Notes under the pieces: generated by a model | What the model saw: only the letters and a program-made list of their open reading frames with translations | Databases searched by the model: none | What the model was told of the DNA's origin: nothing | Shown: positions 2,664-27,613 of the stretch, piece after piece | Layout of the letters: the number at the start of each line of letters is the position of its first letter | Position numbering within the stretch: position 1 is the first letter of the stretch | Position numbers and translations under genes: made by a program | Assembly (NCBI GenBank): GCA_043808785.1 | Contig: JAZDEL010000010.1 | Location: forward strand, 120,001-152,000 | DNA: 32,000 nucleotides | From: Candidatus Iainarchaeum sp. | GTDB taxonomy: Archaea > Iainarchaeota > Iainarchaeia > Iainarchaeales > JAZDEL01 | Direction: 5' to 3'

Positions 2664-2685
2664 CTGTTGTGCGGATACAGTGCTT

Positions 2686-3867: not shown

Positions 3868-3899
3868 TTGCTTCGGGAAGGCTGCAGGTTTGCCCTAAT

Positions 3900-8298: not shown

Positions 8299-8322
8299 TC
8301 GATAATAGTAACGCAAAGGTTG

Positions 8323-8334
8323 TTTATAATTATT
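8323..8334 (-). promoter_or_regulatory. TATA box of cassette 1 operon
   Basis: The minus strand reads AATAATTATAAA, centred about 30 nt upstream of the ATG at 8298. The core AATAATTATA is conserved at the equivalent position of cassette 2 (20045-20056). Confidence 0.5.
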
Positions 8335-8355: not shown

Positions 8356-11300
8356 CTAGGGCTCTTCAATCTTGGCATTACCTTTCCCCGCAGCCTCCCC
8401 GTTCTCCCTTGCGGCAACCCTCATCAGCCCTTCGGTTTCCCCCTGCCTTAACCTTAACCCGACAACGGAGCTCTTCTGCTTGTTTAATGTAACTCCCACC
8501 AACTGGTCCGCCTCCGAAATTATCGTGTCGTTGTGCGTGATGCTTATGAACTGCGAGCGCCTGCTCATCTGCCCTATCATCCTGCCGAGTTTCAGCGAGT
8601 TGTCCTTGTCGAGCGCTGCATCAACCTCGTCAAATATGTAGAATGGCGCCGTCTCAAACGACTGTATCGCAAACAAAAACGCAAGCGCTGCAAGGCTTTT
8701 CTCCCCCCCGCTCATTGCATCTATGCTCTTCAGTTTCTCCCCCTTGTATTTTGCCTCTATTGTAAGCCCCCCTTCAAGAGGGTTCACGCTGTCCGTAAGC
8801 CCCAATCTCCCTTCCCCCTCGAAGAAAAGGCTGTAAAGTTCCATGAACTTGTTGTTTATCCTTGCGAAGCAGTCCGTGAAAACCTGGTTCTTTTTCACGT
8901 CTATTTTGTCTATCATTTCAACAACAGCAAGCCTTTCCTCGTCCAGCTTTTTCGCCCTCTCCCTGAGGTCGACAACCTCGTTCCTGTACGAATCGAAGTT
9001 TTCAGTTGCCTTCATGTTTATCGCGCCGAGCGCCTTTATTTCCCGCTCTATAGAGGGTATGCGCTCCCTTAATTTCGGCACGCTGAACTCCTTCAGCAGC
9101 TTCTCCCCCTTGTGCTGTTCGAACTCCAATTCCATGTCCGCAATCCTCACATCATTTTTGGATTGTGAAAGGTTCAGTTCATTTATCTCCCTGCCGAGCC
9201 TTTCCGCCTTTGCCTCGGCCTCGTCCCTCTTCAGGCCGATGTTTGAAATCCTGTTCGTTATCCTGCCCTTCTCCTCCTCGAACATCCTTGTCTCTTTCCT
9301 CGCTTTCTCAAGTTCCGCATCCTTCTTTGCAAGTTCCTCCTCGAGTTTCTTGAGTCCGTGCCTCTGCGCATCCGCAAACGCGGAGCCCTTGCTGTTCAGT
9401 TCCCCGGCTTTTTCCATCTCCGCCTCGGTTTCCGCCTTCGAGGCTGCCGCAGACTCCAGCCACGCCTCCAGTTTTGCCGCCTTGTTCTGCAGTTCGGATT
9501 TTTGCGCGTTCGCGCTTTCAATCCTCCCTATAAGCCCCGACATTTCCGTGTTTTCCTCGCTCTTCCTGAACGCCTCCACCTTTTTCGCGAGCGCGGACAT
9601 GGTTGCCTCCGCCGCAACAACGGATTTCTCCGCAGCGCCCTTCTCCGCAAGCGCGGCATTAACCCCCGCCTGCAGAGCCTTCAGGTCAATTCCCGCAGCA
9701 GCCCTCTCAACATCCCTGAGCGCGTTCCTCGAGCGCTCCAATCCCGCGGCTTCAGCAACCGCGGCCCTTTCCTCGTGCAGGAGTTCCTCCAGTTTTTCGC
9801 GCTCCTTTGAGAGTTTTTCGCGCTCTGCCGCTCTCGCCTCCGCTTCCGCGCCAACTTTTGTCAGCAGCGCCGCCTTCTTCTTCGAAATCGCCTCCTTAAG
9901 TTTCTCGCCCAGTTCCCTGTCGCACACGGGGCAGTTCTTCTGCGCGATTTTCAGTTCCCTTATCTCGTCCTCGAGCACCCTTTTGGCGTTCTTTGCCCCG
10001 TGCAATGCATCAATTGCGGCTTCAAGCGCCTTGTGATTGTCCCTTGCCTTGCCCTCAATTTTCATTTCCCGAAGTTCGGCAATCCTTTTCTCAGTGCGCT
10101 CCAGCTTTTTCACGTCCGCGGAAAGCGCATCTTCCCGCTTTTTCAGTTCCGCAAGCCTTGATTTCGCGGTTTCAAGCGCGTGCCTCATCTTGCCAACTTC
10201 GGCATCAAGCCTGTAAATCTCGCCCTTAATTTTCCCCGCCCTCTCCCTCGCCTCCTCCAGCGCCTTCTCGTCCTCCGCCGCTTTTGCGCCCGCAGCGGAA
10301 ACCTTCCCGGATTTCTTCCCGATTATCCTGTTCAGTTCCGCAAGCTGCGCATCCATCTCCTTTAATTTGTCCCTTGCGCCCCTGAGCGCCTCCTCCTTTT
10401 CCCTTGTGCCGTCAATAAGCCCCTTCCTTTTCTCCTTCAATGCCTCAATCCTTGCGCGGTTCCTCGCAATCTCCTCCTCCTTTGCCGAAATCCTCTCCCT
10501 TGCAAGCCTGACCTCGGAGCGCTTTTCCTCCACGCCCTTCCCTATCTCCTCATAGGTTTTCTCGTTCGCCCTGAGAATGTTCTTTATTGTTTCATCAAGC
10601 TTCTTTTCAAGTTCCGCAACCTCCGCGCCCAAACCCGCCTTCTCCTTCCTTGCCCCTTCAAGTTCCGCAGCAAGCGCATCGCCCTTCTTTTTCGCGGATG
10701 CGAGTTCCGCGCGCACGCGAATTATTTCCGCATTCAGCAGCGTGGCCTTGCTCCTCCTCAGTTCCTCGTTCAGCGTGTTGTATTTCAGCACGGCCTCGCG
10801 CTCCTTCTCAAGTTCGGCAAGGTATTGCTCCCTTTCCCCGAGCACAATCATCGCGTCTTTAACCCGCCTGTCCACAGCCTCCAGCTTTTTGAGCGCCTCC
10901 TCCTTCTTTCCCTCGAATTCCGAAAGCCCCGCCATATCATCGATTATTTTCCTGCGCTCCTTTGCGCTCATCTCTATTACCCTTGTGATATCCCCCTGCA
11001 CAACGATGTTCTGCCCCGTGGCCTTTATCCCGAGTTCAAGAAGCAGGGTTGTTACCTCATTCAGGCTGCGCTTCTTGCCGTCGAGCAGCATCACGGAGCG
11101 GCCTTCCTTGTCTATCTTCCTTGAAATGACATACGTCTTTTCCCCGCCCTGCAGTTCCAGCTCGACCTTCGCATACGGCTCATCGGCATCGTGGTTCACG
11201 AGGTCAGTGAGCTTTGAAGCGCGCAGCATTTTAAGCGAGGTTATGCCGAACGCGAAAAGTATCGCATCAACCAGGTTGGATTTTCCCGAGGCATTGGAGC

Positions 11301-11391
11301 CCGCTATGGCGGTGAAGCCCGAATGGAAGGGTATGTTCGCCTTCCTGAAGGACTTGAAGTTCTTCAGCCTCAGCCTGCCTATCCTTATCAA
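8356..11391 (-). CDS. SMC-superfamily ATPase: SMC-type head domains, long coiled coil, CPVC zinc-hook-like apex, no recognisable hinge
   Basis: N-head: FTAIAGSNASGKSNLVDAILFAFG...LRASKLTDLV...QGDITRVIEMSAKERRKIIDDMAGL. C-head: MSGGEKSLAALAFLFAIQ, FYIFDEVDAALD, QFISITHN. The E/K/A/R-rich coiled coil has CPVC at 9922-9933, close to the midpoint. The apparent start is a TTG at 11389-11391, with no in-frame ATG before the upstream stop. Confidence 0.85.
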   Translation of the reverse strand: MIRIGRLRLKNFKSFRKANIPFHSGFTAIAGSNASGKSNLVDAILFAFGITSLKMLRASKLTDLVNHDADEPYAKVELELQGGEKTYVISRKIDKEGRSVMLLDGKKRSLNEVTTLLLELGIKATGQNIVVQGDITRVIEMSAKERRKIIDDMAGLSEFEGKKEEALKKLEAVDRRVKDAMIVLGEREQYLAELEKEREAVLKYNTLNEELRRSKATLLNAEIIRVRAELASAKKKGDALAAELEGARKEKAGLGAEVAELEKKLDETIKNILRANEKTYEEIGKGVEEKRSEVRLARERISAKEEEIARNRARIEALKEKRKGLIDGTREKEEALRGARDKLKEMDAQLAELNRIIGKKSGKVSAAGAKAAEDEKALEEARERAGKIKGEIYRLDAEVGKMRHALETAKSRLAELKKREDALSADVKKLERTEKRIAELREMKIEGKARDNHKALEAAIDALHGAKNAKRVLEDEIRELKIAQKNCPVCDRELGEKLKEAISKKKAALLTKVGAEAEARAAEREKLSKEREKLEELLHEERAAVAEAAGLERSRNALRDVERAAAGIDLKALQAGVNAALAEKGAAEKSVVAAEATMSALAKKVEAFRKSEENTEMSGLIGRIESANAQKSELQNKAAKLEAWLESAAASKAETEAEMEKAGELNSKGSAFADAQRHGLKKLEEELAKKDAELEKARKETRMFEEEKGRITNRISNIGLKRDEAEAKAERLGREINELNLSQSKNDVRIADMELEFEQHKGEKLLKEFSVPKLRERIPSIEREIKALGAINMKATENFDSYRNEVVDLRERAKKLDEERLAVVEMIDKIDVKKNQVFTDCFARINNKFMELYSLFFEGEGRLGLTDSVNPLEGGLTIEAKYKGEKLKSIDAMSGGEKSLAALAFLFAIQSFETAPFYIFDEVDAALDKDNSLKLGRMIGQMSRRSQFISITHNDTIISEADQLVGVTLNKQKSSVVGLRLRQGETEGLMRVAARENGEAAGKGNAKIEEP

Positions 11392-11555
11392 AAAGAGCCC
11401 CCCGCACCCGATGGTTCCCCCGCCCTAAATGCCCTTATCAAAAAAATCCCCCGCAATCATAAACAACCGTGGATAGGTTTTTAAGGGTTTTAAGGGTGAA
11501 GGCGGCGTGCGTTTTTAGGGTTTTTAAGCGTGCGGGCGTTTCTGCTGCGGGCTGT

Positions 11556-12365
11556 TCACTTCCTCTTCCTTTTCTTTGCAAGGGTTCCTAGGTAATACGA
11601 TGCAAGGGCGATGCTGAAATATGCGCCGCCGATGATTGAGAACAGGGCAAGAACCGCCACTTCGGCAATTTCATTTCCTGCGGCAAGTGCGGATGCAGCG
11701 TCCCCGGCAACGCTTATTATGCCGTTGAACAAAAGCAGCAGCACAAGGAAGAGCAGGATGCCGGGCAGTTTCCCCGCGCTCCACCTCCATGTTTGCTGCA
11801 TGCCCTTCTTCGGCTTCAGGCCGTGCGCTGCCATTGCCGCGGGCACGAACAGGAGCTTGACGGAAACATACGCCGCAAGAACCGTCAGCAGCAGCGTAAG
11901 CACAAGCCCTATAAGTTCAAGCCCCGCCACGGTTGAAATCCAGAGCAGGAACATCCCCGCAAGCACGAACGCGAGGAAAAGCACCGTTACAAAAACCGAG
12001 AGCCATAGGATGCTGCCCAGGCGCGAGGTTGCGTAAGCAACCCCCTCACCCAAACTTTCCTTCCTTGTTTTTTTCATCCCTGTGTACGCAAACACCAGCC
12101 ACGCCCATAACGCATACTGCAGCACAATCACAATTCCGGTAACCAGAAGTTCCTTCCAGTAAATTGCGAAGAGCATGTAAGGCAACTCAATGAATGAACC
12201 TTCCGGCATTACCCCCGCCATGAACGTGTTCCAGAAAAAGCCCATTATGAAATCCATTGCAAGGAAAGCAAGCACGAGGTTTATTGCCGTAACCACGGCG
12301 GCGGGAATAAGCACTGCGGGCTTCCTCACAATCTCCCAAGCGGAGCCGAAAAGCGCGTTGAACAT
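11556..12365 (-). CDS. Polytopic membrane protein, function unknown
   Basis: About 6 predicted hydrophobic helices and a basic tail KKRKRK. The start is moved to the internal ATG at 12363-12365 (MFNALFGSAWEIV...), because the track N-extension runs across the divergent L44e promoter and start. Confidence 0.65.
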   Translation of the reverse strand: MFNALFGSAWEIVRKPAVLIPAAVVTAINLVLAFLAMDFIMGFFWNTFMAGVMPEGSFIELPYMLFAIYWKELLVTGIVIVLQYALWAWLVFAYTGMKKTRKESLGEGVAYATSRLGSILWLSVFVTVLFLAFVLAGMFLLWISTVAGLELIGLVLTLLLTVLAAYVSVKLLFVPAAMAAHGLKPKKGMQQTWRWSAGKLPGILLFLVLLLLFNGIISVAGDAASALAAGNEIAEVAVLALFSIIGGAYFSIALASYYLGTLAKKRKRK

Positions 12366-12420
12366 GCTAATTAGAACGGTTTTGTTGTTTTTATTACTTT
12401 CGGGGCGCGGATGTGGAAAC

Positions 12421-12430
12421 CTATATAAAC
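12421..12430 (+). promoter_or_regulatory. TATA box for rpl44e
   Basis: CTATATAAAC lies about 35-40 nt upstream of the ATG at 12465. Confidence 0.4.
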
Positions 12431-12464
12431 CCTTCATGGGAAGATTCCTTGTCAAGGCGATTAA

Positions 12465-12755
12465 ATGAACCTCCCTAAGGTTATCAAGGATTACTGCCCG
12501 AAGTGCGACAAGCACACCGAGCACAAATTAAAGCAGTTCAAGCCTGGCTCCCCCCGCACAATGGCGTGGGGCACAAGGCAGAACAAAAGGAAGCACAAGC
12601 AGGGCTACGGGGGCAAGGCCGAATTCACGGCAACCGTGAAGAAGCAGAACAAGAAGCCCGTATTCCTCGCGGAATGCGCAGTTTGCGGAAGGAAGCACTA
12701 TTTCGTTATCCCGAAAAGGATGAAGAAAGCCGAACTGATTGCGAAGACGGGTTAG
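12465..12755 (+). CDS. rpl44e: 50S ribosomal protein L44e
   Basis: MNLPKVIKDYCPKCDKHTEHKLKQFK...GYGGKAEF...ECAVCGRKH: 96 aa with two CxxC pairs and the GYGG motif typical of L44e/L36a. Confidence 0.9.
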   Translation: MNLPKVIKDYCPKCDKHTEHKLKQFKPGSPRTMAWGTRQNKRKHKQGYGGKAEFTATVKKQNKKPVFLAECAVCGRKHYFVIPKRMKKAELIAKTG

Positions 12756-12780
12756 TGCCTGAATATGTTTGTGGTTTGAT

Positions 12781-13155
12781 ATGGCGAAAAGACCTGTGCG
12801 GGGCAAGGAACCGCCTAAAAGAAACAAGCGCAATGCAGCATCCGGATGCCCCGACCCCGACTGCCGGTTGCTGGAGGACATGGGATTCCTGAAAAAAAGG
12901 CTGGCTCGAATAGGAACGCCTGCAATGTTCAAAAAGTTTGTCGAGCTGGCCAAAACCAGGAATCTTCCCCATGATTCTATTAAGCTGTGTAAGTCCTGCG
13001 GCTTTACGCCGGAGCAGGCGCTTACTGTTGAATGCCATAGGTTAAACTCTTATGGCAGCAACTGGAGCGAAGAATCAACAGTGAGATTTGCAAAAGCCAA
13101 AGTTGCAGAGGTTTACCTGCCAAAACCAAAAAAACAAAACCAAAACCGCGGTTAG
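12781..13155 (+). CDS. Hypothetical basic protein with Cys pairs
   Basis: The ATG at 12781 gives MAKRPVRGKEPPKRNKRN...CPDPDC...CKSCG...PKPKKQNQNRG. No family recognised. Its C-terminal tail is encoded by the A/C-rich arm of the downstream palindromic element. Confidence 0.5.
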   Translation: MAKRPVRGKEPPKRNKRNAASGCPDPDCRLLEDMGFLKKRLARIGTPAMFKKFVELAKTRNLPHDSIKLCKSCGFTPEQALTVECHRLNSYGSNWSEESTVRFAKAKVAEVYLPKPKKQNQNRG

Positions 13156-13184
13156 CGAACCGCGCGGTTCGTTTTTTGGTTTTT
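13144..13184. terminator. Bidirectional hairpin plus T-run terminator between convergent genes
   Basis: Palindromes AACCGCGGTT (13144-13153) and GAACCGCGCGGTTC (13157-13170). They are flanked by an A/C-run on the left and GTTTTTTGGTTTTT on the right, so each strand reads hairpin then T-run. Confidence 0.55.
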
Positions 13185-13186
13185 AT

Positions 13187-13756
13187 TTATCTCTTAAATT
13201 TCTTCAGCAGTTCTTTCGTCAGTTTCACCCTGTCATCGCACGCTTCATAAAGGCTGTCATGGACGTATGTTTCGGGGTCATAATAAAGCGTAACCAAAAC
13301 TCCAGCCTGCTTTGCGAACAATATCGCGGGCAGGAAATCGCTGTCACCCGCAACCAAAACCGCCTTGTGTATTTTGTTTCCCGCGGACAGGCTTGTCATG
13401 TCAATCCCAAGCGCCATGTCTATTCCTTTCTGCCTCAGTTCGGGGTAGCCGTCCGCTTTCCTCCGTATTCGCCCTCCTTCCTCCCGCACTATCTGCAATC
13501 TCCCCGTCCTGAATTCGAACCTCGGCAGCCTTGTTAGGTTATATTTGAAGGAATCGAATGCCGCCTTCCTTTCCGATTCCTCCTTTGCAGGCGGGAACGA
13601 CTGGTATGGCTGGCAGTCATAAACATATGTCCTAAATCGGTTTTCCTCACTGCCGGCTATTTCCGAGGAGAACGTGAGGTAATTCACGCGCACCTGCAGC
13701 CTGTCCTGAATTTTCTTCAGGTAGCCGTTGTCTATGAATACCGCAACCTTGTCCAA
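13187..13756 (-). CDS. NYN domain (LabA/DUF88-like, PIN-like fold) protein, putative ribonuclease
   Basis: VAVFIDNGYL at the N-terminus, KGIDMALGIDM, and VLVAGDSDFLPAILFAKQAGVLV. This is the typical order of NYN/LabA acidic motifs. Confidence 0.8.
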   Translation of the reverse strand: MDKVAVFIDNGYLKKIQDRLQVRVNYLTFSSEIAGSEENRFRTYVYDCQPYQSFPPAKEESERKAAFDSFKYNLTRLPRFEFRTGRLQIVREEGGRIRRKADGYPELRQKGIDMALGIDMTSLSAGNKIHKAVLVAGDSDFLPAILFAKQAGVLVTLYYDPETYVHDSLYEACDDRVKLTKELLKKFKR

Positions 13757-13906
13757 GAACCCAGCCCCTAAATTGGACTAAAAAGGCAGAAGCAGAATAA
13801 TTTACCATCGTCCCTCAAGAACGATGGCGGGTATAATTGACATATTTATGCCACTAACAAATATTTAAGGCTAACTATTCTTCCCAAACCGCGCTTTTTC
13901 AGCGGT

Positions 13907-15265
13907 TCAGCGCGCTTTCCCCAGCCCGTGCTTCTCCAAAAATTCATCCAGCGCCTTTTCAAGCGTGAGTTCCCCGATTTCCTCGAGTTCGTAGTTCGCG
14001 CGCACGAGGGGCTTCTTCGCCTTCAGCACGCGCGAAAGGTCGATAGGTGTTCCCGAAACCACAACATCCGCATTGCTCGCGTTTATTGTTTCCTCGAGTT
14101 CCTTAATCTGCTGTGCGCTGTAGCCCATTGCAGGCAGGATTTCCTTGCGCGGGAACTTTTTGAGGGTTTCCTTTATGGAACCTACGGCAAACGGCGTTGC
14201 ATCAATCAATTCCGCTGCGCCCGCATCCTTCGCGGCAAAATACCCCGCCCCGTGCTCGAGTTCGCCGTGGGTTAATGTGGGCCCATCTTCAACAACAAGC
14301 ACGCGCTTGCCCTTAACCAATTCGGGTTTGTCGAGCGTGATTGTAGAGTTTGCCATTATTATTTTCGCGTTCGGGTTTATTGCGCGGATGTTGCGTTCTA
14401 CTGTTGCGACCCCTTCTTTCGGCGCTGTGTTCACCTTGTTGATTATAACAACATCCGCAATCCGCGCGTTCACCTCCCCCGGGAAGTAAGCCAACTCATG
14501 CCCTGCGCGGAAAGGGTCAGCCACGGTTATGTATAAGTCAGGCTTGCCTTTTCCCTGCGGCCTGTAATATGAAAGGTCGTTGTTCCCGCCGTCCCAGAGA
14601 ATTACATCCGCTTCTTTTTCCGCGTGTTCAAGGATTTCGGCGTAATCAACCCCCGAAAAAATCACAAGCCCGCGCTCTATGTAGGGTTCATATTCTTCGC
14701 GCTCTTCAATCGTGCAATCATATTTCTCAAGGTCGGAATATTTTTCATAGCGCTCCCACCTTTTTTTCACGAGGTCTGCGTAAGGCATTGGGTGTCGAAT
14801 GGCAACACAACGAACGCCGCGCTTCTTCAGCAGTTCAACAATTTTTCTGCTCGTCTGGCTTTTGCCCGAACCAGTGCGCACAGCGCACACGGCAATTACC
14901 GGCTTGCTTGACTCCAGCATGGAGTGCTTCGGCCCTATTAACCTGAAATCCGCGCCGCAGGACATGCACTCCGCGGAGTTATGCATAACCTCGGCATATG
15001 TAACATCGCTGTATGCATGAACACATTCGTCAGCCCCGTGCTTCTTGATAAGTTCCTGCAGTTCCGCCCTTGCGCGGATTGGGATTCCTTTCGGGTAAAG
15101 TTTTCCCGCCAACTGCGGCGGGTAAACCCTGCCTTCAATCCCCGGAATCTGCTGCGCAGTAAAAGCAACAACCTCGTAATTTTCATTATCGCGGAAAACT
15201 GTGTTGAAGTAGTGGAAGTCCGTGCCTGCCGCGCCGATTATTATTACTTTTTTTCTCGCATTCAT
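13907..15265 (-). CDS. COG2403-family GTPase-like protein / cyclic 2,3-diphosphoglycerate synthetase-like
   Basis: KVIIIGAAGTDFHYFN, FTAQQIPGIEGRVYPPQLAGKLYPKGIPI, AVRTGSGKSQTS, RHPMPYADL, CTIEEREEYEPYI, ILWDGGNND, VVEDGPTLTHGE, LPAMGYSAQQIKELE. Start set at the ATG at 15263-15265 (the track start is a TTG two codons upstream). Confidence 0.8.
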   Translation of the reverse strand: MNARKKVIIIGAAGTDFHYFNTVFRDNENYEVVAFTAQQIPGIEGRVYPPQLAGKLYPKGIPIRARAELQELIKKHGADECVHAYSDVTYAEVMHNSAECMSCGADFRLIGPKHSMLESSKPVIAVCAVRTGSGKSQTSRKIVELLKKRGVRCVAIRHPMPYADLVKKRWERYEKYSDLEKYDCTIEEREEYEPYIERGLVIFSGVDYAEILEHAEKEADVILWDGGNNDLSYYRPQGKGKPDLYITVADPFRAGHELAYFPGEVNARIADVVIINKVNTAPKEGVATVERNIRAINPNAKIIMANSTITLDKPELVKGKRVLVVEDGPTLTHGELEHGAGYFAAKDAGAAELIDATPFAVGSIKETLKKFPRKEILPAMGYSAQQIKELEETINASNADVVVSGTPIDLSRVLKAKKPLVRANYELEEIGELTLEKALDEFLEKHGLGKAR

Positions 15266-15267
15266 TT

Positions 15268-16182
15268 TCAAGCCTCCATTTGCCTTGGTTTGTAGAATTT
15301 AAAATAAGCAATAAGCATCAGCGCAAGCAGCACAGCTGCTCCGCCAAAAACCAGAAGCCAGTCAATGCCCGCAGGTTCGGCTACGGGCTCGCCCAGCGCT
15401 GGCTGTGCAGCAGCCCCTGCGAATGGGCAATCCTGCGGGCAGTTCTGCGCATTTTCCCCAACATCGCAAACATGGTTGCCGTTGCACCTTGAGACTGAGG
15501 GAATTTCGGCGTGCTTTTCGATTACTGCGAACTGCGCGGTTTTCCGCATCGTTTTGTAGCCCTCCTTTTTTGCTGTTGCCCTTAATTCATAGCTGCCCGG
15601 CCCCAGTTCATCTGCAGCAATTGAACCAGGCAGGCCTATCGTTTTTGTTGTTCCGTCCGGCAAAACAAGTTCGGCACTTACTGCAGGCTCTGCGGTTTCA
15701 GATTCAAAACCGAAATAGATCGTTTCACTTGGCGTGAAAAAGCCTGATTTGCCGTTGCAGCCCTGGTCTGCGCAAGAGAAGATTTCAAACCTGAAACTTG
15801 GGTTGGTTTCAATCCTGAATTTCTTTTCCCCCCTTGCCTGTTCGGGGCTCTTAACGTCCACAGAGGCCGTGCATTCCTGGGGCTCTAGGGAACCGTCCAC
15901 CTCAATGCCTGAATAGGTGCCTGAATATGCCTTCCCCGCGATTAAGGCTGCAGTTTCCTCATTCAGGGGGGCATTCGGGGCGTTCGGGCACTCGACATGC
16001 GGGACAAAAACAATCCCTGTTCCGTAGTCCGAGGAAATTGAATAATCAAAGGAGATTTTCTCGCCGCTGGAGAACGAATCCGCGACATTAATCGCCACAT
16101 CTATCCCTGCACTTGCTGATGGCACAAATAAAAGCGCCGCGAGCAAAGCAAAAATGCCCTTTGCCAGTTTGCTGTGTTTCAT
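15268..16182 (-). CDS. Cassette 2, gene 3: paralogue of 3900..4796 (anchored Ig-like protein)
   Basis: Collinear with the cassette 1 protein: same signal peptide, same CNGNHVCDVGENAQNCPQDCP module and a TM tail. The extreme C-terminus differs (FYKPRQMEA). The stop lies 2 nt before the downstream COG2403 gene start. Confidence 0.8.
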   Translation of the reverse strand: MKHSKLAKGIFALLAALLFVPSASAGIDVAINVADSFSSGEKISFDYSISSDYGTGIVFVPHVECPNAPNAPLNEETAALIAGKAYSGTYSGIEVDGSLEPQECTASVDVKSPEQARGEKKFRIETNPSFRFEIFSCADQGCNGKSGFFTPSETIYFGFESETAEPAVSAELVLPDGTTKTIGLPGSIAADELGPGSYELRATAKKEGYKTMRKTAQFAVIEKHAEIPSVSRCNGNHVCDVGENAQNCPQDCPFAGAAAQPALGEPVAEPAGIDWLLVFGGAAVLLALMLIAYFKFYKPRQMEA

Positions 16183-19100
16183 CTTGCAATCTCCCCCCTG
16201 AACATGTCATTCGTGTAGTTCTGCTGGATGAAATCCACGCCTTCCTGCAAGGTAAACCCGATGTTAACCATATACTTGTCCTTGCCGGCAAGATTCCCCC
16301 CCAATATGTCTACTGAAAAGTGTTTAGCCTGGCCCGGCGCCAGTGATATCCCCACATTTTCCTCCCCCCCAGTTTTAGCAGAAACCATGACCGTAACATA
16401 CTCCAATGTTACAACCGCATCTTTATTCCCGATATTCGTTATATCAAAGGTTACCGAGTCCCCCGAGATTCCGGGATTTTTTATGGCAAGGTCCGGGGCT
16501 TCGGAATAAAGTTCTATATCAAAATCGTAATCCGTGAATCCGGAGTCGTTTGCGGTTGTGAAATACTCTTTTCCATACTCATCGAGTTTTGAAACCCACA
16601 AATATTTCCTTCCTTGGCCGTATTCATGGTCAATCTGCCAGCCTTTTGAAACCGCAACAGGCTCGAAATCCTGCGGCGCTTCAAGCCTTGCCGTAAAGTT
16701 TTTGTTCCCCCCGGCAGCGGATGCCGTGGTGAAATAGAGCGGCTCCTTGCACTGGTTTGGGTAATACTCGCAGAGTTCGGCTATGTTTTCGGGTATGTCA
16801 ATCCGCATTGCAGGAACGGTTATCCCGTAGTTTCCGCCGCCACTTGCCTCGCTTATGAATTCCATGCGCGCTTTGGGGAGGGTGTGCGCCGTTCTCACCT
16901 TCATTGTAGGGTCGCCGATGAGGAGATACCATCCCGAAGAATTGTCCTCAATGTTGCCTTGCGTAAGCGTTGCAGCGTCCAGGACGATTCCCGCGTTTTT
17001 TGAATTCCTGAATGCCTCCCCCGTGGTCGAGCCGTTTGCAAAAATCTCGGCAATCTGCCCATCCATGTTCACCCCGCCCGAGCTGTCCGTTGCGCCTATG
17101 AAGCCTATCGCACCCTGCCTTATTGCGTTCGCGCAAAAGCTGTATTTGAAATAATACTTAAACGTGCATGTCAGGCAGGCCATCGTAGTTATGAATGAGT
17201 TGTCCAGATAAGGAATCTCATGCGCATCTATGCCTGCCCACGTGGTGCCGCCATGGTCCCTGTAAATTGTGAAAAATTTATCCTTCCAATGTTCCGGCTT
17301 CATATGGGGGTTAAGCATATTGGGGCCTTCACCTTCAGGTATTACAACCGTGGCATATCCTGCGGAAGACATTACTTTCCCGAAGGCATATACTTCCGCA
17401 GGGGCGGTTTGGTCTGTCCTGCCCATCGTAATAAGCATGCTCTCCTCGTTTTGCAGTGTTTCATCGTAAAACATGCTTCTCACAACGTATGCTGACGTGT
17501 CAGCCACGGTCACGCCGAAAATCCTGCCGACAGCAAGGTCAAGGAGCGGGTCACCATCCTTGGTTTTTGAATAAAACCACGCATCCGCAGCATAATAGTC
17601 GCCGCCCTCGTCCAAATAATCCATGCCTATTGCATTTGGGCTTGCAACTATGGTAAGATATTCAACGTCCGCACCCAGCGCCTCTATTGAGGAGTCTATG
17701 AAGGCATCCACATCCATATAGTTGGCCGAGCGCGTGCTTAATATCAGCTCGTGTTTTGCGGATGCCAGGAATGGCGCGGCAAGGGAGTTCCTGCCGTAAA
17801 TTTCGTAGACGTGGATGTGGCTATATATGCCGTAGCCGTCGTAATCATCCAGCACTTCCTTGATGTCCAGGTCGTCGGGATTTACGAGGATTAGTTTATT
17901 CGTGTTTGTCAGCTCCGCATATTTTTTCTGCATCTGTTCAAGTGAATATTGCTCCGCCCCAGCTGAGTTCGAGTTGATGTAGCTTTGGGTCGCAGAATCC
18001 GCCTGGCCGACAATTATAACATGCCTGCCGCCGATAACATTCTTGTATTCATCCAGATTGCCCCCATTCACGAAAATTAGGGGCGCATTGATGTATGAGG
18101 CATAAGCCGAGGCAAGCAGTGCAGCCTCATAATTGTCATAATCGGTGAGCACGACAGTATCAAAAGCCTTCCAGTATGCGAAGTAATCCGCAGGCGAGAT
18201 TCTCTGCACCTGCCCTTCCGTGAGCCTTGCGCCGTACTCCGAATCCAGCATCAGGAGATTGTCCAGGTCTTGCGGGGTTTCCCCGGCTATTGTGAGCCTT
18301 TGGGGCGGGTATTGCCTCATGAAATACATGGCTGATTCCGCGTCAAATGATTCATAGCATTGGACTTCCTTGTCTTCGCTTATTTTTAGCCCGAACTCAA
18401 AAGTTTCCCCTTCGGGCGCCGCCCTGTTTATGTTTTCAATTTTTCCGTCCGCCGGATTTGTGAATTGGATGAAGTCCGGCTTTTCCGTTATTTCAATTGA
18501 TTTCACAACCGCCCCAGTAGTGATTTTAATGCTGAGGGTTACTTCATCGCCTGGCTTCAAGTTAGCAAACTTGCTGAACGTTCCGGTTTCATACCAGTTG
18601 GCATCTGCAGGCTCGACAGTGACCTTTGCCCCGATGGGGTCTTTGAAGCCCTTCTGCCAATCCGAACCTGTCCAATGTCCGATATATGTGAGGTCAAGGT
18701 CGGTGCTCCTGCACGGCTCCTGATGGTAAATCAGGGCGGGGTTTTTGTGCACCTCTCCCCCTTCTGTCCAGATTGATACAGGCACAAGCTGCAAAACATC
18801 GTGCCAGTCCGCGTCAGAAACAAGGAAAACCTCCTTGTCAGAATATTTGCTCATCAGTTTTTCGTTAGGCCCGATTTCCCAGCCGCCGCTGCCCGTGTAT
18901 TCCCCCTCCCCGAAAATAAGATAGCCGCCATCAGGGAAAGTGCACAGCGCATCAACGCTGTCCATTCTCCCCTTGAAGAATCCGACATTATCGATGCTTG
19001 CGTGGTTGTAGTGCAGCGCCCCGCCTTTTGAAAACCATATGTCGAGTTCGCGGTTGCCGTTCACAAGCCAGATAAACTGGTTATTGCCTGCGGAATCCTT

Positions 19101-19574
19101 GTAGAATGTTACCGCATCCCCCGAGGAGGGGCATTTCTCAAGCCCTGCGCACTGCTCCGCCGCAATTTCGCTTATGTTATATGGCGTGTCGCTGATTTTG
19201 CCGTCCTTTAGCACCCACGCCTTATTGCCCGAAGTTATTTCATAAATGTTTGACGAGGGAATGTACGTGAAAGCATCTATCGGGCCGTCTATCTGCGGGT
19301 AGAGTTCCGAAATCAGCCCCTGCTCCCAGCGCTTCTGCCTGATGTTCCAGCCGAAAACAGTATCTGTGCTGTTTTCAAAGTAGAGCATGTATGTGGGGGT
19401 CAGGGCACATGCATCAATTTTGTTTGGCGTGTTTTCTGTAAGCCCAACGGAATAAAACAAATCGTGCGTGTTCAGTGCCTGCACCTCGCCCTTGAATGAA
19501 ACAACCTGCTCGGCAAATGCGTAAGATGAAAACGCAAGGGCAAATGCCAAAAGCGCAAGCGCAAAGCGGTTCAT
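16179..19574 (-). CDS. Cassette 2, gene 2: paralogue of 4793..7843 with an extra ~120-aa inserted module
   Basis: Same domain order as cassette 1. Putative His in YRDHGG (17253-17255) and Cys in TTMACLTC (17175-17177). The insertion is bracketed by Cys residues, between LIYHQEP and SFDAES (about 18354-18713). Confidence 0.8.
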   Translation of the reverse strand: MNRFALALLAFALAFSSYAFAEQVVSFKGEVQALNTHDLFYSVGLTENTPNKIDACALTPTYMLYFENSTDTVFGWNIRQKRWEQGLISELYPQIDGPIDAFTYIPSSNIYEITSGNKAWVLKDGKISDTPYNISEIAAEQCAGLEKCPSSGDAVTFYKDSAGNNQFIWLVNGNRELDIWFSKGGALHYNHASIDNVGFFKGRMDSVDALCTFPDGGYLIFGEGEYTGSGGWEIGPNEKLMSKYSDKEVFLVSDADWHDVLQLVPVSIWTEGGEVHKNPALIYHQEPCRSTDLDLTYIGHWTGSDWQKGFKDPIGAKVTVEPADANWYETGTFSKFANLKPGDEVTLSIKITTGAVVKSIEITEKPDFIQFTNPADGKIENINRAAPEGETFEFGLKISEDKEVQCYESFDAESAMYFMRQYPPQRLTIAGETPQDLDNLLMLDSEYGARLTEGQVQRISPADYFAYWKAFDTVVLTDYDNYEAALLASAYASYINAPLIFVNGGNLDEYKNVIGGRHVIIVGQADSATQSYINSNSAGAEQYSLEQMQKKYAELTNTNKLILVNPDDLDIKEVLDDYDGYGIYSHIHVYEIYGRNSLAAPFLASAKHELILSTRSANYMDVDAFIDSSIEALGADVEYLTIVASPNAIGMDYLDEGGDYYAADAWFYSKTKDGDPLLDLAVGRIFGVTVADTSAYVVRSMFYDETLQNEESMLITMGRTDQTAPAEVYAFGKVMSSAGYATVVIPEGEGPNMLNPHMKPEHWKDKFFTIYRDHGGTTWAGIDAHEIPYLDNSFITTMACLTCTFKYYFKYSFCANAIRQGAIGFIGATDSSGGVNMDGQIAEIFANGSTTGEAFRNSKNAGIVLDAATLTQGNIEDNSSGWYLLIGDPTMKVRTAHTLPKARMEFISEASGGGNYGITVPAMRIDIPENIAELCEYYPNQCKEPLYFTTASAAGGNKNFTARLEAPQDFEPVAVSKGWQIDHEYGQGRKYLWVSKLDEYGKEYFTTANDSGFTDYDFDIELYSEAPDLAIKNPGISGDSVTFDITNIGNKDAVVTLEYVTVMVSAKTGGEENVGISLAPGQAKHFSVDILGGNLAGKDKYMVNIGFTLQEGVDFIQQNYTNDMFRGEIAR

Positions 19575-20020
19575 TGCGCTTTCACCGCCTGCAATTCGTT
19601 CTTCACATCCCCCCCGCCCTGATAGAAAGTGAAGGTTGCGCTTCCGCCGCCATCGGGGGGCACTATGCCGCCATTCCCCCCGCCGCCAGCGCCGCTGCTC
19701 GGCGGCGCGAGTATTCCTGTAGCAAGCCCGCTCAAATCCGCGGTTGTTGTCGGCGCGCCGATATTTCCCGCATAAAGTTTGGCAACAGTTCCAGGCCCGC
19801 CAAGCGCAATGCCTGCTTCTTCCTTAATCTTCACCATTCCCCCCTCCGCGGTTGCATTAACCTCGCCCCCCGCGCTTTTCGAGGTCTGCATAATAAGAAG
19901 TATCACAATCACGGCGACAAGCACAACCCCGCCTATGAGGAGGAGGTATTCCATCGAGCCCTGCCCTGCGGCTGCTTTGGTGGCATGCCTTTTTTCATTC
20001 GGGCTTTTTTGCGCGGGCAT
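19571..20020 (-). CDS. Cassette 2, gene 1: pilin-like protein with class III signal peptide
   Basis: MPAQKSPNEKRHATKAAAG-QGSMEYLLLIGGVVLVAVIVILLI, giving G at -1, Q at +1 and E at +5. The Gly-rich tract differs from copy 1. The ATG is at 20018-20020. Confidence 0.8.
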   Translation of the reverse strand: MPAQKSPNEKRHATKAAAGQGSMEYLLLIGGVVLVAVIVILLIMQTSKSAGGEVNATAEGGMVKIKEEAGIALGGPGTVAKLYAGNIGAPTTTADLSGLATGILAPPSSGAGGGGNGGIVPPDGGGSATFTFYQGGGDVKNELQAVKAQ

Positions 20021-20044
20021 CGCTAACTATAACGCCCCCAGTGC

Positions 20045-20056
20045 ATATAATTATTT
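20045..20056 (-). promoter_or_regulatory. TATA box of cassette 2 operon
   Basis: The minus strand reads AAATAATTATAT, centred about 30 nt upstream of the ATG at 20020. It is homologous to the cassette 1 promoter. Confidence 0.5.
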
Positions 20057-20288
20057 CGCAGCCCCGTTTTCCGCATTTTTCCTGCAGCGCAGCGAAAAAC
20101 GGTTTTACCCTCTACACCGTGATTTTGTATTGTAGATGGTAAGTTCCATCGCGGTTCCCTGCGCAAACCATTTTAAACCCTTATTAACCCAATACTTAAC
20201 AGCGGAAATTTGATTTGTTTTTTTGTTAAGCAAGCCGCGAGGCGAACCGAGAGGGGTTAACAAAAACCAACGAGGCAAAAACAAAACC

Positions 20289-20334
20289 AAAAAAACCAAA
20301 ACCAACCGCGCGGTTGGTTTTTGTTTTGGTTTTC
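20289..20334. repeat. Orphan copy of the GC-palindrome plus A/C-run and G/T-run hairpin element
   Basis: AAAACCAAAACCAACCGCGCGGTTGGTTTTTGTTTTGGTTTT has a perfect 16-nt palindrome CCAACCGCGCGGTTGG at its core. It belongs to the same family as 293-380 and 13144-13184, but no annotated gene ends here. Confidence 0.6.
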
Positions 20335-20349: not shown

Positions 20350-21207
20350 ATGACAACAAAAAACTCGATTCTGCTCATAATAAAGCAGAACAACGGCATA
20401 GATTACAACACCCTCCTCAGCAAAATCTCGGGGAATTACTCAAGCATAAACTCCGCAATGGCCGCGCTGAGCCGCGCGATAAAGGACCTCGCTGTAATGG
20501 GCTATGTGGTGAGGAAGGACAACCGCATCTACGCAACCCAGAGCGCGGAAGCGCTCATACATTCCGAAATGAAGAACAAACTGCTCCTGCGCCTGAACCA
20601 GATTGTGAACTCCAAGAACAACGTGCAGGAAATCGACTCGATTGTGGAGCACCTTCACATGCTCATAGAGCGCTCGAAGGACGATGCAGCGCTTTTGCGC
20701 GCGGCAAAAGGCTCGACCGAATTCTCGATCCGCGATTTGGAGGCAATCGATGCCGAACTCGACTCCAGAATCAAGCACCTCTCCTATATTTCGGGCGTCT
20801 TTAAGGGGCAGGTTGCGGAAATGAAGAACCTTGATTTCAACAACAGCGTGCAGATGCCGCTCTCCGCCGACACTGTTGCAAGGCTGCAGAAGGAGGCGGA
20901 GGAACTCGCCCTGCAGGACATTTCAGCGGAAACAAAGAACCCCGCGTTCCTCGCGCTCGCCTCCGGTGCCGGGGGCACGGAACTCGGCGTGAAAATGAAG
21001 GGGGCAACAACCCTGTCCGTGCCGTTATCCTCGCTCAAGGGGTTCCTGAGCCTTGCGATGAAGCACAACGCGGAGCACAGGGATTTGTTCCTCGTGCTTC
21101 ACTTCCCGCCCCTTGTAGTAAGGCTGACGCCCGTTTACTTCTCCACGGAGGGCCCGCACTCGCGCCTGAAGAAACTCGCAGGCAAGCACGGGGAGGGGCA
21201 GATTTAA
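20350..21207 (+). CDS. Hypothetical protein with N-terminal winged-helix-like DNA-binding domain
   Basis: The ATG at 20350 gives MTTKNSILLIIKQNNGIDYNTLLSKISGNYSSINSAMAALSRAIKDLAVMGYVVRKDNRIYATQ, a wHTH-like pattern. The rest is helical with no recognised family. The track TTG start at 20314 lies inside the palindrome. Confidence 0.55.
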   Translation: MTTKNSILLIIKQNNGIDYNTLLSKISGNYSSINSAMAALSRAIKDLAVMGYVVRKDNRIYATQSAEALIHSEMKNKLLLRLNQIVNSKNNVQEIDSIVEHLHMLIERSKDDAALLRAAKGSTEFSIRDLEAIDAELDSRIKHLSYISGVFKGQVAEMKNLDFNNSVQMPLSADTVARLQKEAEELALQDISAETKNPAFLALASGAGGTELGVKMKGATTLSVPLSSLKGFLSLAMKHNAEHRDLFLVLHFPPLVVRLTPVYFSTEGPHSRLKKLAGKHGEGQI

Positions 21208-21268
21208 TTCATGCCGCCTGCAGAGGAAAAGGTTATAAAAAAACCCGTGATAGTTCATATGTGGGTTA

Positions 21269-21434
21269 TGCAGCCATAGTCTAGTGGCAGGATTCGAGCT
21301 TCCCAAATCAGGGCCCTTCGGGTCCCGATACCCCCAAAGGGAACGGAACCTTCGGGTTCCGCGCCCCAAAGGTTCGGGTTGATGAGGGGTTGATGGTTCA
21401 AGCTCGCGACCCGGGTTCGAATCCCGGTGGCTGC
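21269..21434 (+). tRNA. tRNA-Gly(CCC) with a ~95-nt intron at the canonical 37/38 position
   Basis: Manual fold: acceptor GCAGCCA/TGGCTGC, D-stem GTCT/GGAT, anticodon stem CGAGC (21294-21298)/GCTCG (21401-21405), loop TT-CCC-A[intron 21305-21399]A, T-arm CCGGG-TTCGAAT-CCCGG, discriminator A. The mature length is 71 nt. Confidence 0.8.
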
Positions 21435-21601
21435 ATTCAACCGATAGTAATGTGCATCTCCATTTATGGCATTGTTCATGCCGGAATCGGTGCATTTTTT
21501 GATTGCACTTATAATGCCCAAACTGCTTAATTAAGTTTTTGGTTTTTGGCCAGTAACCTTGCGCGAAAATAACTATTTTATGCTTATCTGCCCCTATCTT
21601 T

Positions 21602-22192
21602 ATGATGCCCGAACCGCCTAAGTACCATCCAAAATATGTCCCTGTTAAGGGGCGCAAACGGCCTCCTTGGCTTGAGGAGCTCGAGAGGGAGAAAAGATAC
21701 ATTCACTGGGAGGGTGTGTCGAATTATGACCTGAGGCAACCTCTCGGATGGAGAGGCTTCTTAAATTTAATAAGCCGGCACAGCCTCTTGGAGTCAAATC
21801 AAGGGCATGCCGAGGCAATGTCAATTGCAAGGTCAAAGGCTAAGCCCGATTTCTTCCACGACGATTTTCCCGTGTGCACTACTGAAAGGTTCAAAACCCC
21901 TGACTTGAGGACAAGCCCGGGGCATGTGCTTTGGGGAATAATATTCATGGAGAAAGTCCCTGAAAAATTCAGGCAAATCGTCCTTGACCACGAGGCGAAA
22001 GTCGCAGAATTGTTTTCGCGCAATGAGCCGACAAAAAGGTCAAACCCCGACTTCAGGGAGTTCTGCGACAATGAACGGAAGTGGCTGGAGAAGCACGGCC
22101 TGCTGGCAGAATGGATTGGATGGGTGAAGAGGGATTACCCGCAGCTTTACAAAACCGCGCTTGAGCTGCGCGGGATTAAAGTTTCTAATTAA
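21602..22192 (+). CDS. Hypothetical protein (islet gene 1)
   Basis: 196-aa ORF with a TATA-like CTATTTTATG about 25 nt upstream. No family recognised by eye. Confidence 0.55.
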   Translation: MMPEPPKYHPKYVPVKGRKRPPWLEELEREKRYIHWEGVSNYDLRQPLGWRGFLNLISRHSLLESNQGHAEAMSIARSKAKPDFFHDDFPVCTTERFKTPDLRTSPGHVLWGIIFMEKVPEKFRQIVLDHEAKVAELFSRNEPTKRSNPDFREFCDNERKWLEKHGLLAEWIGWVKRDYPQLYKTALELRGIKVSN

Positions 22193-23349: not shown

Positions 23350-24189
23350 CTAGGAAGATAGTGGAATCTCCATCTGGGCAATTGTTTTGAATAGACGTTC
23401 TCTGGCCTCCTTTGGAATGTCGCTGAAATCGTCATCGGCTATGGAGCGGAATATGCCTTCTTTCTCGCAGTAGTTGTCCAGATATTCAAACAGTTCCGTA
23501 GCGTAGCCGTCCGCCATACATTTGTTCCCCTTCAGCGCGCCAAATAGTTCATCAATAGTGCAAATAACCTGCCCCCTCTTCACAGGGTCTGAGACATCCT
23601 TCAATTTTTTTAATATTTCCCCGACATGGTGCAAGTACCCAAGCATACAGTATAACCTGTCCTCGTCTTCAGGTGACGACCCGTTCCCGATATTTTTGCC
23701 GACCAAATCGCGGTAAATTGGCAGGTTGCTCTCAATCCTCCCGATAGATTCAAGTGTCTTTGATTTGCTCCTGAATGTGTCCACATATGTCTTGTGCACA
23801 AAGTCGAGAATCTCAGTGGCATTCTTGTCTTTGTATTTGTTAATTATTTTTTCGGCCTTTTTTCTCTCATCATCATTGATTAGGGGCTCGCAAATATTGC
23901 GGAAATAGCGCTTGCCCTCCGGCGTTAACCGAATAGTGTAGCGGCTGTGAGGCCCTGCCGAACAAAGTTCCTCCTGCAATAATCCATTAGCGATGCAGAA
24001 ATTAACCGAAATATAATCGACTGGCCCGAATTTATAATTGGATATCGGGCTGTCATATTTAACATGCCCCTCCCCTTCAATGAGATAATGGATTTTATAT
24101 AGTTTTATTCTGCCATCTACCTTCCCCAATCTATCTAAGATAAACAGAAGCAATTGGATATTTTTATTGGGCTTTTCAAGGTCTGCCAT
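23350..24189 (-). CDS. Panacea (DUF4065/SocA)-like or wHTH N-domain protein with helical C-domain (putative antitoxin/sensor), tentative
   Basis: RIKLYKIHYLIEGEGHVKYDSPISNYKFGPVDYISVNF resembles the KLqKLlY...GPv core of Panacea domains. It is followed by GLLQEE...YTIRLTPEGKRYF (wing-like) and about 170 aa of helical sequence. Confidence 0.45.
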   Translation of the reverse strand: MADLEKPNKNIQLLLFILDRLGKVDGRIKLYKIHYLIEGEGHVKYDSPISNYKFGPVDYISVNFCIANGLLQEELCSAGPHSRYTIRLTPEGKRYFRNICEPLINDDERKKAEKIINKYKDKNATEILDFVHKTYVDTFRSKSKTLESIGRIESNLPIYRDLVGKNIGNGSSPEDEDRLYCMLGYLHHVGEILKKLKDVSDPVKRGQVICTIDELFGALKGNKCMADGYATELFEYLDNYCEKEGIFRSIADDDFSDIPKEARERLFKTIAQMEIPLSS

Positions 24190-27340: not shown

Positions 27341-27435
27341 GCAGTCAACGCCTCGGGCGGGAAGGCGGGGGAGCCATTTGCCGTGCAGGGCTCCGAACCC
27401 AGCCAGCCCTCTCCGCGCCTTCTTCCCCTTCGCAG

Positions 27436-27517
27436 CGCCGAGGGTGAGATTCGAACTCACGTGCCCAAGGGCTCCCGCTCTCGAGGCGGGTGCGTTTAAC
27501 CACTCCGCCACCTCGGC
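27436..27517 (-). tRNA. tRNA-Ser(CGA)
   Basis: The reverse complement folds as acceptor GCCGAGG/CCTCGGC, 3-bp D-stem GCG/CGC, anticodon stem CCCGC/GCGGG with loop CT-CGA-GA, long variable arm GCCC-TT-GGGC, T-arm GTGAG-TTCGAAT-CTCAC, and discriminator G. Confidence 0.9.
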
Positions 27518-27613
27518 ATTTCCCTTAACCATTATTGGATAATGCCCTATTTAAACGCTATTGCCGTGCGCAGCCTTGGGGGCGTAAAAATAAAAAGAAA
27601 AAGGGGAAGCGCC

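Follow-up and report, generated by a model that had tools for sequence, protein, structure and literature searches.

Two paralogous operons, probably derived from one old duplication and encoding a putative cell-surface apparatus, in Candidatus Iainarchaeum sp.

Introduction

Cysteine peptidases of family C25, which include the gingipains RgpB and Kgp as well as PorU, belong to clan CD of the MEROPS classification and are secreted, multidomain proteins in which Ig-like β-sandwiches follow the catalytic core. A hallmark of the clan is that the His and Cys motifs of the active site each come after a buried β-strand. In Clostridioides difficile, Cwp84 and the Cwp family provide a second type of surface cysteine protease, tethered to the envelope by three CWB2 repeats. 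Archaeal pilins of the EppA type (DUF361, PF04021), as in Methanococcus maripaludis, are small proteins with a characteristic N terminus, and multi-copy families of large extracellular proteins are found in symbionts belonging to the DPANN archaea (Diapherotrites, Parvarchaeota, Aenigmarchaeota, Nanoarchaeota, Nanohaloarchaeota) and the candidate phyla radiation (CPR) of bacteria. Here we describe a locus related to each of these systems. It lies in a 32,000-nucleotide (nt) stretch of Candidatus Iainarchaeum sp. (assembly GCA_043808785.1, contig JAZDEL010000010.1, positions 120,001 to 152,000), hereafter the window, in which an operon of three genes, here called A, B and C, is present twice. 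We consider it likely that the two copies are paralogous, independently promoted surface operons that go back to one old duplication in this DPANN-type archaeon, each encoding a cell-surface apparatus.

The likenesses to the described systems are spread over the operon. The product of gene B scores above the cut-off of the C25 family model (PF01364), presents its His-Gly and Ala-Cys motifs after hydrophobic β-strands in the order typical of clan CD, and is, like the C25 peptidases, a predicted secreted protein of several domains with Ig-like β-sandwiches after the catalytic core. In concept it also resembles the Cwp proteins, as a cysteine protease that would be held at the envelope through CWB2-type α/β domains. 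Gene A encodes a small protein with a PF04021 N terminus, in which the residues Q(+1)..S(+3)..E(+5) precede a hydrophobic helix as in the EppA-type pilins. Finally, several B-family genes can occur in one genome, as in the multi-copy families of DPANN and CPR symbionts. The searchable literature yielded no description of a DPANN/CPR module pairing a C25 enzyme with an anchor protein; secreted C25 peptidases of DPANN and other sediment archaea were mentioned there in general terms only.

Results

Extent and integrity of the duplicated operon

A repeat search and self-BLAST of the window revealed one large direct repeat and no other of such size, and self-BLAST returned no further self-matches beyond this pair. 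Positions 3911-6985 match 15291-18353 with 85.4% identity over 3090 nt (E=0), and positions 6986-8284 match 18714-19977 with 83.8% identity over 1306 nt. In a global alignment the two copies (copy 1, 3911-8284; copy 2, 15291-19977; both on the minus strand) are collinear and share 3730 of 4376 aligned bases, or 85.2%, which bears out the preliminary description of the module as present twice, in full and in direct orientation. The identity of about 85-92% given there applies to the better stretches; it is too high overall, as identity per 100-nt window ranges from 0.53 in the Gly-rich part of gene A to 0.96. The start-to-start spacing of the copies is 11.37-11.73 kb.

The homology extends from a TATA-like core, AATAATTATA, to the stop codon of gene C. 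This core occurs exactly twice in the window, where 0.04 occurrences are expected by chance, and is thus common to both copies as had been proposed (Table 1). The 4-nt overlaps (ATGA) at the A/B and B/C junctions, also claimed before, are present in each copy according to both the coordinates of the open reading frames (ORFs) and the sequences. Every coding-sequence indel between the copies is a multiple of three: there are copy-specific in-frame indels of 360, 39 and 12 nt and several of 3-6 nt, and both sets of ORFs remain intact. Exact matches of at least 25 nt number 30, the longest being 59 nt.

Motifs resembling Shine-Dalgarno (SD) sequences (GGTGA, GGGGAG) stand before B and C, whereas inspection of the operon starts found no SD motif before gene A in either copy. 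Taken with a distance of 25-26 nt from the TATA-like core to the ATG, and with what is generally known of archaeal promoters, this suggests that the first cistron is probably leaderless. The start of A1 is the ATG at 8298 and not the TTG at 8316 given by the ORF finder, because the TTG is only ~9 nt from the TATA-like box. At the other end, the stop codon of C2 is followed, 2 nt on, by the ATG of a 454-residue gene with GGAGG 8 nt upstream (15263-15270), and operon 2 probably reads through into housekeeping genes. Operon 1, by contrast, runs up against an AAA_14 ATPase gene in convergent orientation. Rfam detected no RNA elements within the modules or next to them.

Constraint, age and origin of the two copies

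Rates of nonsynonymous (dN) and synonymous (dS) substitution were compared by the pairwise Nei-Gojobori method, in part over 40-codon windows; the pairwise method is low in power. For gene B, dS is 0.385 and dN 0.092 (ω = dN/dS = 0.24), and for gene C the values are 0.445 and 0.099 (ω = 0.22). In gene A the conserved core has a dS of 0.29 and a dN of 0.07, and the Gly-rich and C-terminal part is near saturation. Both operon copies are under purifying selection, with dN/dS ~0.23 and dS ~0.4. Their collinearity, intact reading frames and ω of 0.22-0.24 are those of a segmental duplication with functional paralogues, in agreement with the earlier view that the copies are kept as distinct paralogues.

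The copies appear to have a single age throughout, with no young patch of gene conversion, because dS is similar in all B domains (0.32-0.41). No gene-conversion tract was found: the longest identical run is the 59-nt match (P=0.07 by permutation within codon positions), and the longest run at 4-fold degenerate sites is 16 against 17.6 expected, with a run test that is not significant. There is mild heterogeneity at the 4-fold sites (window variance P=0.004; sum of the top five runs P=0.007), which uneven constraint can explain. The copies exchange no detectable sequence.

The window comes from a contig of metagenome type, 233,549 bp long and listed once in the protein record. The assembly might have placed strain variants of one locus 11 kb apart by mistake, or the contig might be a chimeric join. 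We regard such an artefact as very improbable. At 85% identity the copies are 15% diverged, far outside strain-level variation, and k-mers longer than ~60 nt would separate them given the length of the longest exact match. Unique sequence lies on all four copy flanks, and C2 adjoins a different downstream gene than C1. Moreover, the copy-specific indels leave both ORF sets intact, and a dN/dS of 0.23 indicates that both copies evolved as functional genes.

We favour an old duplication of the complete operon, from promoter to stop codon, within the lineage, because B1 and B2 are mutual best matches, the outgroup is equidistant from them, the codon usage is that of a resident and the borders show no mobile elements. 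Among 5.8 billion proteins the best match of B1 is B2 (84% identity over the aligned positions), and the next matches reach 43-68% over parts. The nearest outside relative, P0004, a protein from a metagenome-assembled genome (MAG) of Candidatus Diapherotrites, has 69.5% and 69.0% identity to B1 and B2, respectively, in the N-domain, and where B1 and B2 differ it is matched by each about equally (14 versus 16 sites). Relative synonymous codon usage (RSCU) correlates at r=0.91 between the copies and at r=0.86 and 0.87 between each copy and the flanking genes, and the GC content at third codon positions is also alike. A window scan detected no mobile-element genes (integrase, transposase) or repeat scars at the copy borders.

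Several features could instead suit an additive xenologue, that is, a second copy of the entire operon that a related DPANN lineage donated by horizontal transfer. The homology is cut exactly at the operon borders without shared flanks, the patchy occurrence of the family in two domains of life (DPANN and CPR) implies past transfers, and the domain make-up is mosaic, with identities to P0004 of 69% in the N-domain and 35% in the C25 core. Even so, transfer seems improbable to us: B1 and B2 are closest to each other by a wide margin, both copies fit the flanking genes equally well in composition, the borders are clean, and an IMG/VR scan found no relatives in viral contigs. Searches for close relatives returned little. 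No sister genome emerged from a scan of GTDB genomes with B1 or from two Joint Genome Institute (JGI) metagenome scans, for which the peptide patterns were poor, and exact look-ups of B1, P0004 and P0123 gave nothing usable. The only near relative found was the gene pair MFH1224677/MFH1224678.

The encoded proteins

B1 begins with a Sec signal peptide, which is followed by a lineage-specific N-domain (residues 22-234), CWB2-like α/β domains (~235-440), a Peptidase_C25 core of clan CD (~441-780) and two β-sandwiches, the last of them CARDB-like. B2 has 84% amino-acid identity to B1 over the aligned positions and keeps the catalytic dyad. The dyad motifs, DHG (His658) and AC..TC (Cys684), occur in both copies and are invariant in 11 homologues, and across a 63-sequence alignment the conservation of each of the two residues is at least 90%. 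In the AlphaFold model, FFVAYKDHG with H658 comes after strand 652-656 and SFITTSAC with C684 after strand 678-682, both strands being buried. From this clan motif, as opposed to a direct alignment, we infer that the dyad would be equivalent to the catalytic residues of gingipains.

The model has a mean predicted local distance difference test score (pLDDT) of 82.5, with values above 90 for most of residues 235-1016. A whole-chain Foldseek search with B matched separase, a clan CD enzyme, with probability 1.00 and a weak TM-score of 0.18 over 306 columns; it also matched Cwp8 (CWB2; probability 0.97) and a CARDB domain (probability 1.00). Glycosidases and transglutaminases dominated this search and were set aside as generic β-sandwich matches, and no gingipain was among its top 50 matches. 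No NCBIfam model exists for A, B or C.

Gene C encodes a predicted membrane anchor. A signal peptide is followed by two β-sandwich domains, a Cys knot (CNGNHMCDAGENAQNCPQDCP in C1; pattern C..C..GEN..NCPQDC), a disordered linker, a C-terminal transmembrane helix and a basic tail, and structure prediction likewise gives two β-sandwiches and a transmembrane helix. No Pfam family was assigned to any of 26 homologues, and the Foldseek matches to Fn3, Ig and MG domains were discounted as generic. A profile of C nonetheless retrieved 930 representatives at E<=1e-3 from 1.84 billion clustered proteins (50% clustering).

The product of gene A resembles a pilin and carries a class III signal peptide. 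A1 contains the motif RA/QGSMEYLLLIGG, a Gly/Asn-rich tract and a short C-terminal tail. Both A1 and A2 carry QGSMEYLLLIGGVVLVAVI, with the Q..S..E motif and the hydrophobic helix, and both score above the PF04021 threshold. Relative to A1, A2 has a longer and different prepeptide, a Gly tract shortened by the 39-nt deletion, and a different C-terminal tail.

The B-C pair across DPANN archaea and CPR bacteria

Members of the B family occur in DPANN archaea (Woese-, Pace-, Nano-, Aenigm-, Iain- and Nanohaloarchaeota), in CPR/Patescibacteria and in one Omnitrophota MAG. We fetched 63 B loci (L001-L063) from DPANN archaea and CPR bacteria and compared their neighbourhoods. In 51 of them (52 by BLAST clustering of neighbouring ORFs) the next gene after B, on its own strand, is a homologue of C, and eight of the 12 loci without one end at, or within ~140 nt of, the end of the contig. 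The gap between B and C is mostly -4 to +2 nt, usually a 4-nt overlap or a spacing of 1-2 nt. The pair is also present in seven of the ten loci labelled bacterial. Across the 63 loci, no conserved gene family other than C was found beside B.

A link to pilins recurs in several of these loci, in different forms. In L042 the B homologue itself (4569-7367) starts with a PF04021 class III signal peptide that is 57% identical to that of A1, and the protein further carries Kunitz and CBM_4_9 domains. In the Patescibacteria locus L049, a bacterial N-methyl pilin gene (PF07963; 7853-8440) ends 18 nt before B. By motif only, N termini of the KRG type, resembling those of archaeal pilins, are present in the upstream ORFs L024:2091-2603, L033:8485-9282, L037:1639-2133 and L041:5829-6329, the last being sub-threshold for Pilin_N; again by motif only, B itself has an N terminus of this type in L050 (8954-13177). 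A T2SSE ATPase is encoded within 7 kb of the B-C pair in 6 of the 63 loci.

Multi-copy paralogy of B is common in these DPANN lineages. The genome JAHISS01 has B-family genes on three contigs (L036, L048, L055) and CAZRJS01 on two (L026, L038), and L062 contains two such genes in tandem (2550-7343 and 9314-13201).

The strict co-encoding of B and C in two domains of life could mean that B is a processing enzyme with C as its substrate. Legumain and PorU are clan CD enzymes with transpeptidase capability. B might then not be a degradative protease but act in the manner of a sortase, comparable to PorU of type IX secretion, by cleaving the anchor of C, or of the pilin A, and attaching the protein to the envelope or to a fibre. 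The end of C, with its conserved motif, linker, transmembrane helix and basic tail, loosely resembles tripartite sorting signals. However, the Cys knot of C is separated from the transmembrane helix by 6-50 variable residues, whereas real sorting signals adjoin the helix. None of the components of a type IX secretion system (T9SS), a sortase or an archaeosortase was seen, and B has no sequence or fold match to PorU. A sortase-like role is the main alternative for the function of B, but we think it unlikely, and prefer to view B as a predicted peptidase that C would present at the surface.

Where the copies differ

The amino-acid differences between B1 and B2 are clustered and not uniform (runs test P=0.0008; window variance P=0.009), as the preliminary description had supposed, and its hot spots, namely the Gly tract of the pilin, loops of the peptidase and the tail of C, also proved correct. 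They are overrepresented where the model has coil (odds ratio 1.9, P=0.0009) and at family-variable positions (P=5e-7). Their density is 22.9% in the C25 core compared with 11-14% in the other domains. The clusters comprise B1 residues 452-476, 525-549, 623-646, 653-670 (which flank His658), 684-697 (after Cys684) and 754-770. Outside B, divergence is greatest in the Gly-rich tract of A and, in C, in the C-terminal stalk and tail.

Despite this clustering, the suggestion that it reflects diversification of exposed parts is not backed by evidence of positive selection. The highest ω in any 40-codon window is 0.78, and thus all windows are below 1; ω is 0.33 for the C25 core and 0.44 for hand-picked variable clusters when pooled. 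One segment alone comes close to 1, namely the signal peptide of B with its 21 residues (1.09). The clustering is accounted for just as well by relaxed constraint on loops as by diversifying selection.

The largest difference is a 360-nt block in phase 0, present in B2 only. It encodes 120 residues bracketed by Cys, both the first and the last residue being cysteines. The preliminary description took it for a large insertion in copy 2. P0004 has a homologous block at the same site with 42% identity, and the block is therefore most likely ancestral and was lost in frame from B1. Inserts at this site are also present in two more distant homologues. We found no convincing microhomology at the borders of the 360-nt indel. 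P0004 itself, besides resembling B1 and B2 to such different degrees in the N-domain and the C25 core, has large extra insertions and a truncated C terminus, and the B family thus appears to evolve as a mosaic of whole domains.

Genes between the copies and other features of the window

The copies are separated by a unique segment with five genes (Table 1), and these include the SMC-like gene and L44e, as had been stated. In the SMC-like protein the head halves are of SMC type (TIGR02169/02168, below the cut-offs), but a CPVC zinc hook of the Rad50 type (PF04423, E 1.7e-4) replaces the hinge; with this and a length of only 1011 residues, it looks like an SMC/Rad50 hybrid.

Table 1 Features of the two operon copies and of the segment between them (window coordinates)
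Feature	Position	Strand	Evidence or remark
C1, 298 amino acids	3900..4796	-	Signal peptide, two β-sandwiches, Cys knot, transmembrane helix
B1, secreted multidomain protein (predicted), 1016 amino acids	4793..7843	-	PF01364 52.8 bits (E 4.9e-14; cut-off 23)
A1, class III signal peptide pilin-like protein, 152 amino acids	7840..8298	-	PF04021 32.2 bits (cut-off 23.7)
Copy 1 promoter core AATAATTATA, archaeal TATA-box-like	8325..8334	-	26 nt upstream of A1 ATG
Unique segment between copies	8356..15265	.	Five genes
SMC/Rad50-like ATPase, 1011 amino acids	8356-11391	-	SMC heads, Rad50-type zinc hook
Unknown ORF, 322 amino acids	11556-12524	-	ORF
Ribosomal protein L44e	12465-12755	+	Domain scan
NYN-domain protein	13187-13756	-	Domain scan
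Unknown ORF, 454 amino acids	13907-15265	-	ORF
C2, C1 paralogue, 304 amino acids, 82% amino-acid identity	15268..16182	-	Stop codon 2 nt before next ATG
B2, B1 paralogue, 1131 amino acids	16179..19574	-	PF01364 55.4 bits (E 7.7e-15; cut-off 23)
360-nt block (120 codons, phase 0), B2 only	18354..18713	-	Self-BLAST gap; P0004 homology
A2, class III signal peptide pilin-like protein, 149 amino acids	19571..20020	-	PF04021 26.7 bits (cut-off 23.7)
Copy 2 promoter core AATAATTATA	20046..20055	-	25 nt upstream of A2 ATG

It follows from this geometry that a crossover between the direct repeats would delete the intervening genes, as noted earlier. Such recombinants probably die, and their lethality may 'lock in' both copies against collapse. 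That lethal recombination is also the cause of the divergence is speculation and is not logically implied, because selection would simply remove lethal deletions, and gene conversion without crossover would still be allowed.

The position of L44e and the SMC-like gene bears on a fuller version of this idea, in which the divergence is driven by diversifying selection acting on exposed parts, and both copies stay distinct because a crossover deletes essential genes. The clustering of changes, their enrichment in coil and family-variable positions with a peak in the peptidase core beside the catalytic His and Cys, and the strong divergence of the Gly tract of A and the tail of C would all be in keeping with it. 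We nevertheless find this account doubtful. Values of ω stay below 1 in all windows, as they do for the C25 core and for the pooled clusters, and relaxed constraint on loops fits the same pattern. The big indel is a loss from copy 1 and not a gain. The lethality of crossovers removes recombinants but neither causes divergence nor blocks gene conversion, and the copies still share 30 exact matches of 25 nt or more. An old duplication followed by purifying selection remains our preferred explanation.

Some other elements of the window deserve mention. A palindromic core, AACCGCGCGGTT, occurs exactly twice, at 13140-13195 and 20278-20333, where 0.12 occurrences are expected with one mismatch allowed. 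Each copy is embedded between AAAACC-rich and GGTTTT-rich runs; one site is between convergent genes, and its counterpart is in the divergent region upstream of operon 2. The pair may represent a shared terminator or another structured element. A tRNA at 21270-21435 (+) scores 46.8 bits with Rfam over 166 nt, which implies an intron of ~95 nt; it was missed by ARAGORN and underlies the spurious ORFs 21025-21702 and 21255-21521. A tRNA-Ser (CGA) at 27435-27517 (-) is inside the 5' end of ORF 25799-27532, which encodes an STT3/AglB-like protein, and the real start of this gene must therefore be further downstream. Lastly, a gene for a SocA/Panacea antitoxin-like protein (23350-24189, -) has a clearly lower GC content (0.436) and an atypical codon usage, with an RSCU correlation with its neighbours of r=0.39, and may be part of a small foreign or toxin-antitoxin islet.

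Discussion

The likely picture is of two independently promoted copies of one surface operon. Transcription from the TATA box would yield an mRNA that is leaderless for A, with B and C translated via their SD-like sites. A would be processed by a prepilin peptidase encoded elsewhere, whereas B and C would be exported by Sec. C would then serve as a membrane anchor or presenter that holds B at the surface, as their strict co-encoding and the topology of C suggest. With its conserved dyad and fold, B is predicted to be an active clan CD cysteine peptidase, and it may cleave extracellular or envelope proteins, whether nutrient, host or the cell's own surface proteins. Its co-transcription with B and C, together with the fusions and adjacencies found elsewhere, makes A a candidate pilin-type partner on a common export or assembly route. 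The cell would display two variants of the apparatus, distinguished chiefly by the surroundings of the active site and by one accessory domain. The copies appear to have drifted apart or subfunctionalised, mainly in loops of the peptidase core, among them residues adjoining the catalytic His and Cys, in the deleted domain, in the low-complexity tract of A and, in C, in the stalk and tail.

A number of points weigh against parts of this picture. Duplication within the genome cannot be separated from acquisition of the second copy from a close relative. The assignment of B to C25 draws on the Pfam hidden Markov model (HMM), the motifs and a weak whole-chain fold match, and neither the family profile nor the C25 core alone retrieved a C25 member among PDB sequences. 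The CW_binding_2 model (PF04122) scores 23.1 bits in B1 and 17.1 bits in B2, below its cut-off of 24.9 and over one stretch only, and the N-domain of B is modelled poorly, with pLDDT below 50 at residues 16-84. Among the scanned ORFs of the window, there were no genes for a prepilin peptidase, a pilus or assembly ATPase, or a platform protein; these may lie elsewhere on the 233-kb contig. A homologue of A was not detectable upstream of B in most loci, and the A-B-C trio may be lineage-specific. The proteolytic activity of B, its surface location and the B-C complex are predictions from sequences and models.

As a paralogue pair the duplication is ordinary and by itself of little consequence; the widespread, uncharacterised B-C module, and its link to pilins, is the more interesting lead. 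As a tentative proposal, to which we attach less than even weight, the operon could be one instance of an undescribed, ancient surface apparatus common to DPANN archaea and CPR bacteria, the two radiations of ultrasmall symbionts, in which a C25-like enzyme is obligatorily paired with an anchored double-β-sandwich protein and is repeatedly coupled to a pilin of the archaeal or bacterial kind. If so, the apparatus might be a pilus-associated protease or transpeptidase for attachment to, or feeding on, host cells, and the two copies described here would be two specificity variants. The B-C pair is thus a testable candidate for the surface machinery of uncultivated episymbionts, whose host-contact proteins are mostly unknown. 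Two copies of the same age in one genome also constitute a natural experiment on how much change a surface protease tolerates. The tolerant parts are the active-site loops, one dispensable inserted domain and the low-complexity tract of the pilin, whereas the N-domain, the CWB2-like part, the β-sandwiches and the catalytic dyad are intolerant.

Although the operon shares features with each of the systems considered at the outset, it departs from all of them. Compared with the gingipains, B lacks a sequence match to any solved member, belongs to an archaeal and CPR context, and has no T9SS C-terminal domain; it carries CWB2-like domains and a lineage-specific N-domain ahead of its core, and it is paired with a dedicated membrane-anchored partner, the product of gene C, for which the gingipains have no equivalent. 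Cwp84 is a papain-type (C1A) enzyme, whereas B is assigned to clan CD; in addition, the CWB2 match of B is below threshold, and the envelope chemistry of DPANN archaea differs. Unlike the EppA-type pilins, A has no assembly ATPase, PilC-like protein or prepilin peptidase nearby in the window, and its mature part would consist mostly of a low-complexity Gly/Asn tract. It is apparently co-transcribed with a protease, and in the relative L042 the same signal peptide is fused to the protease. Finally, in contrast to the multi-copy families of DPANN and CPR symbionts, the unit of duplication here is a whole three-gene operon with its promoter, and the copies are not in tandem but are split by housekeeping genes.

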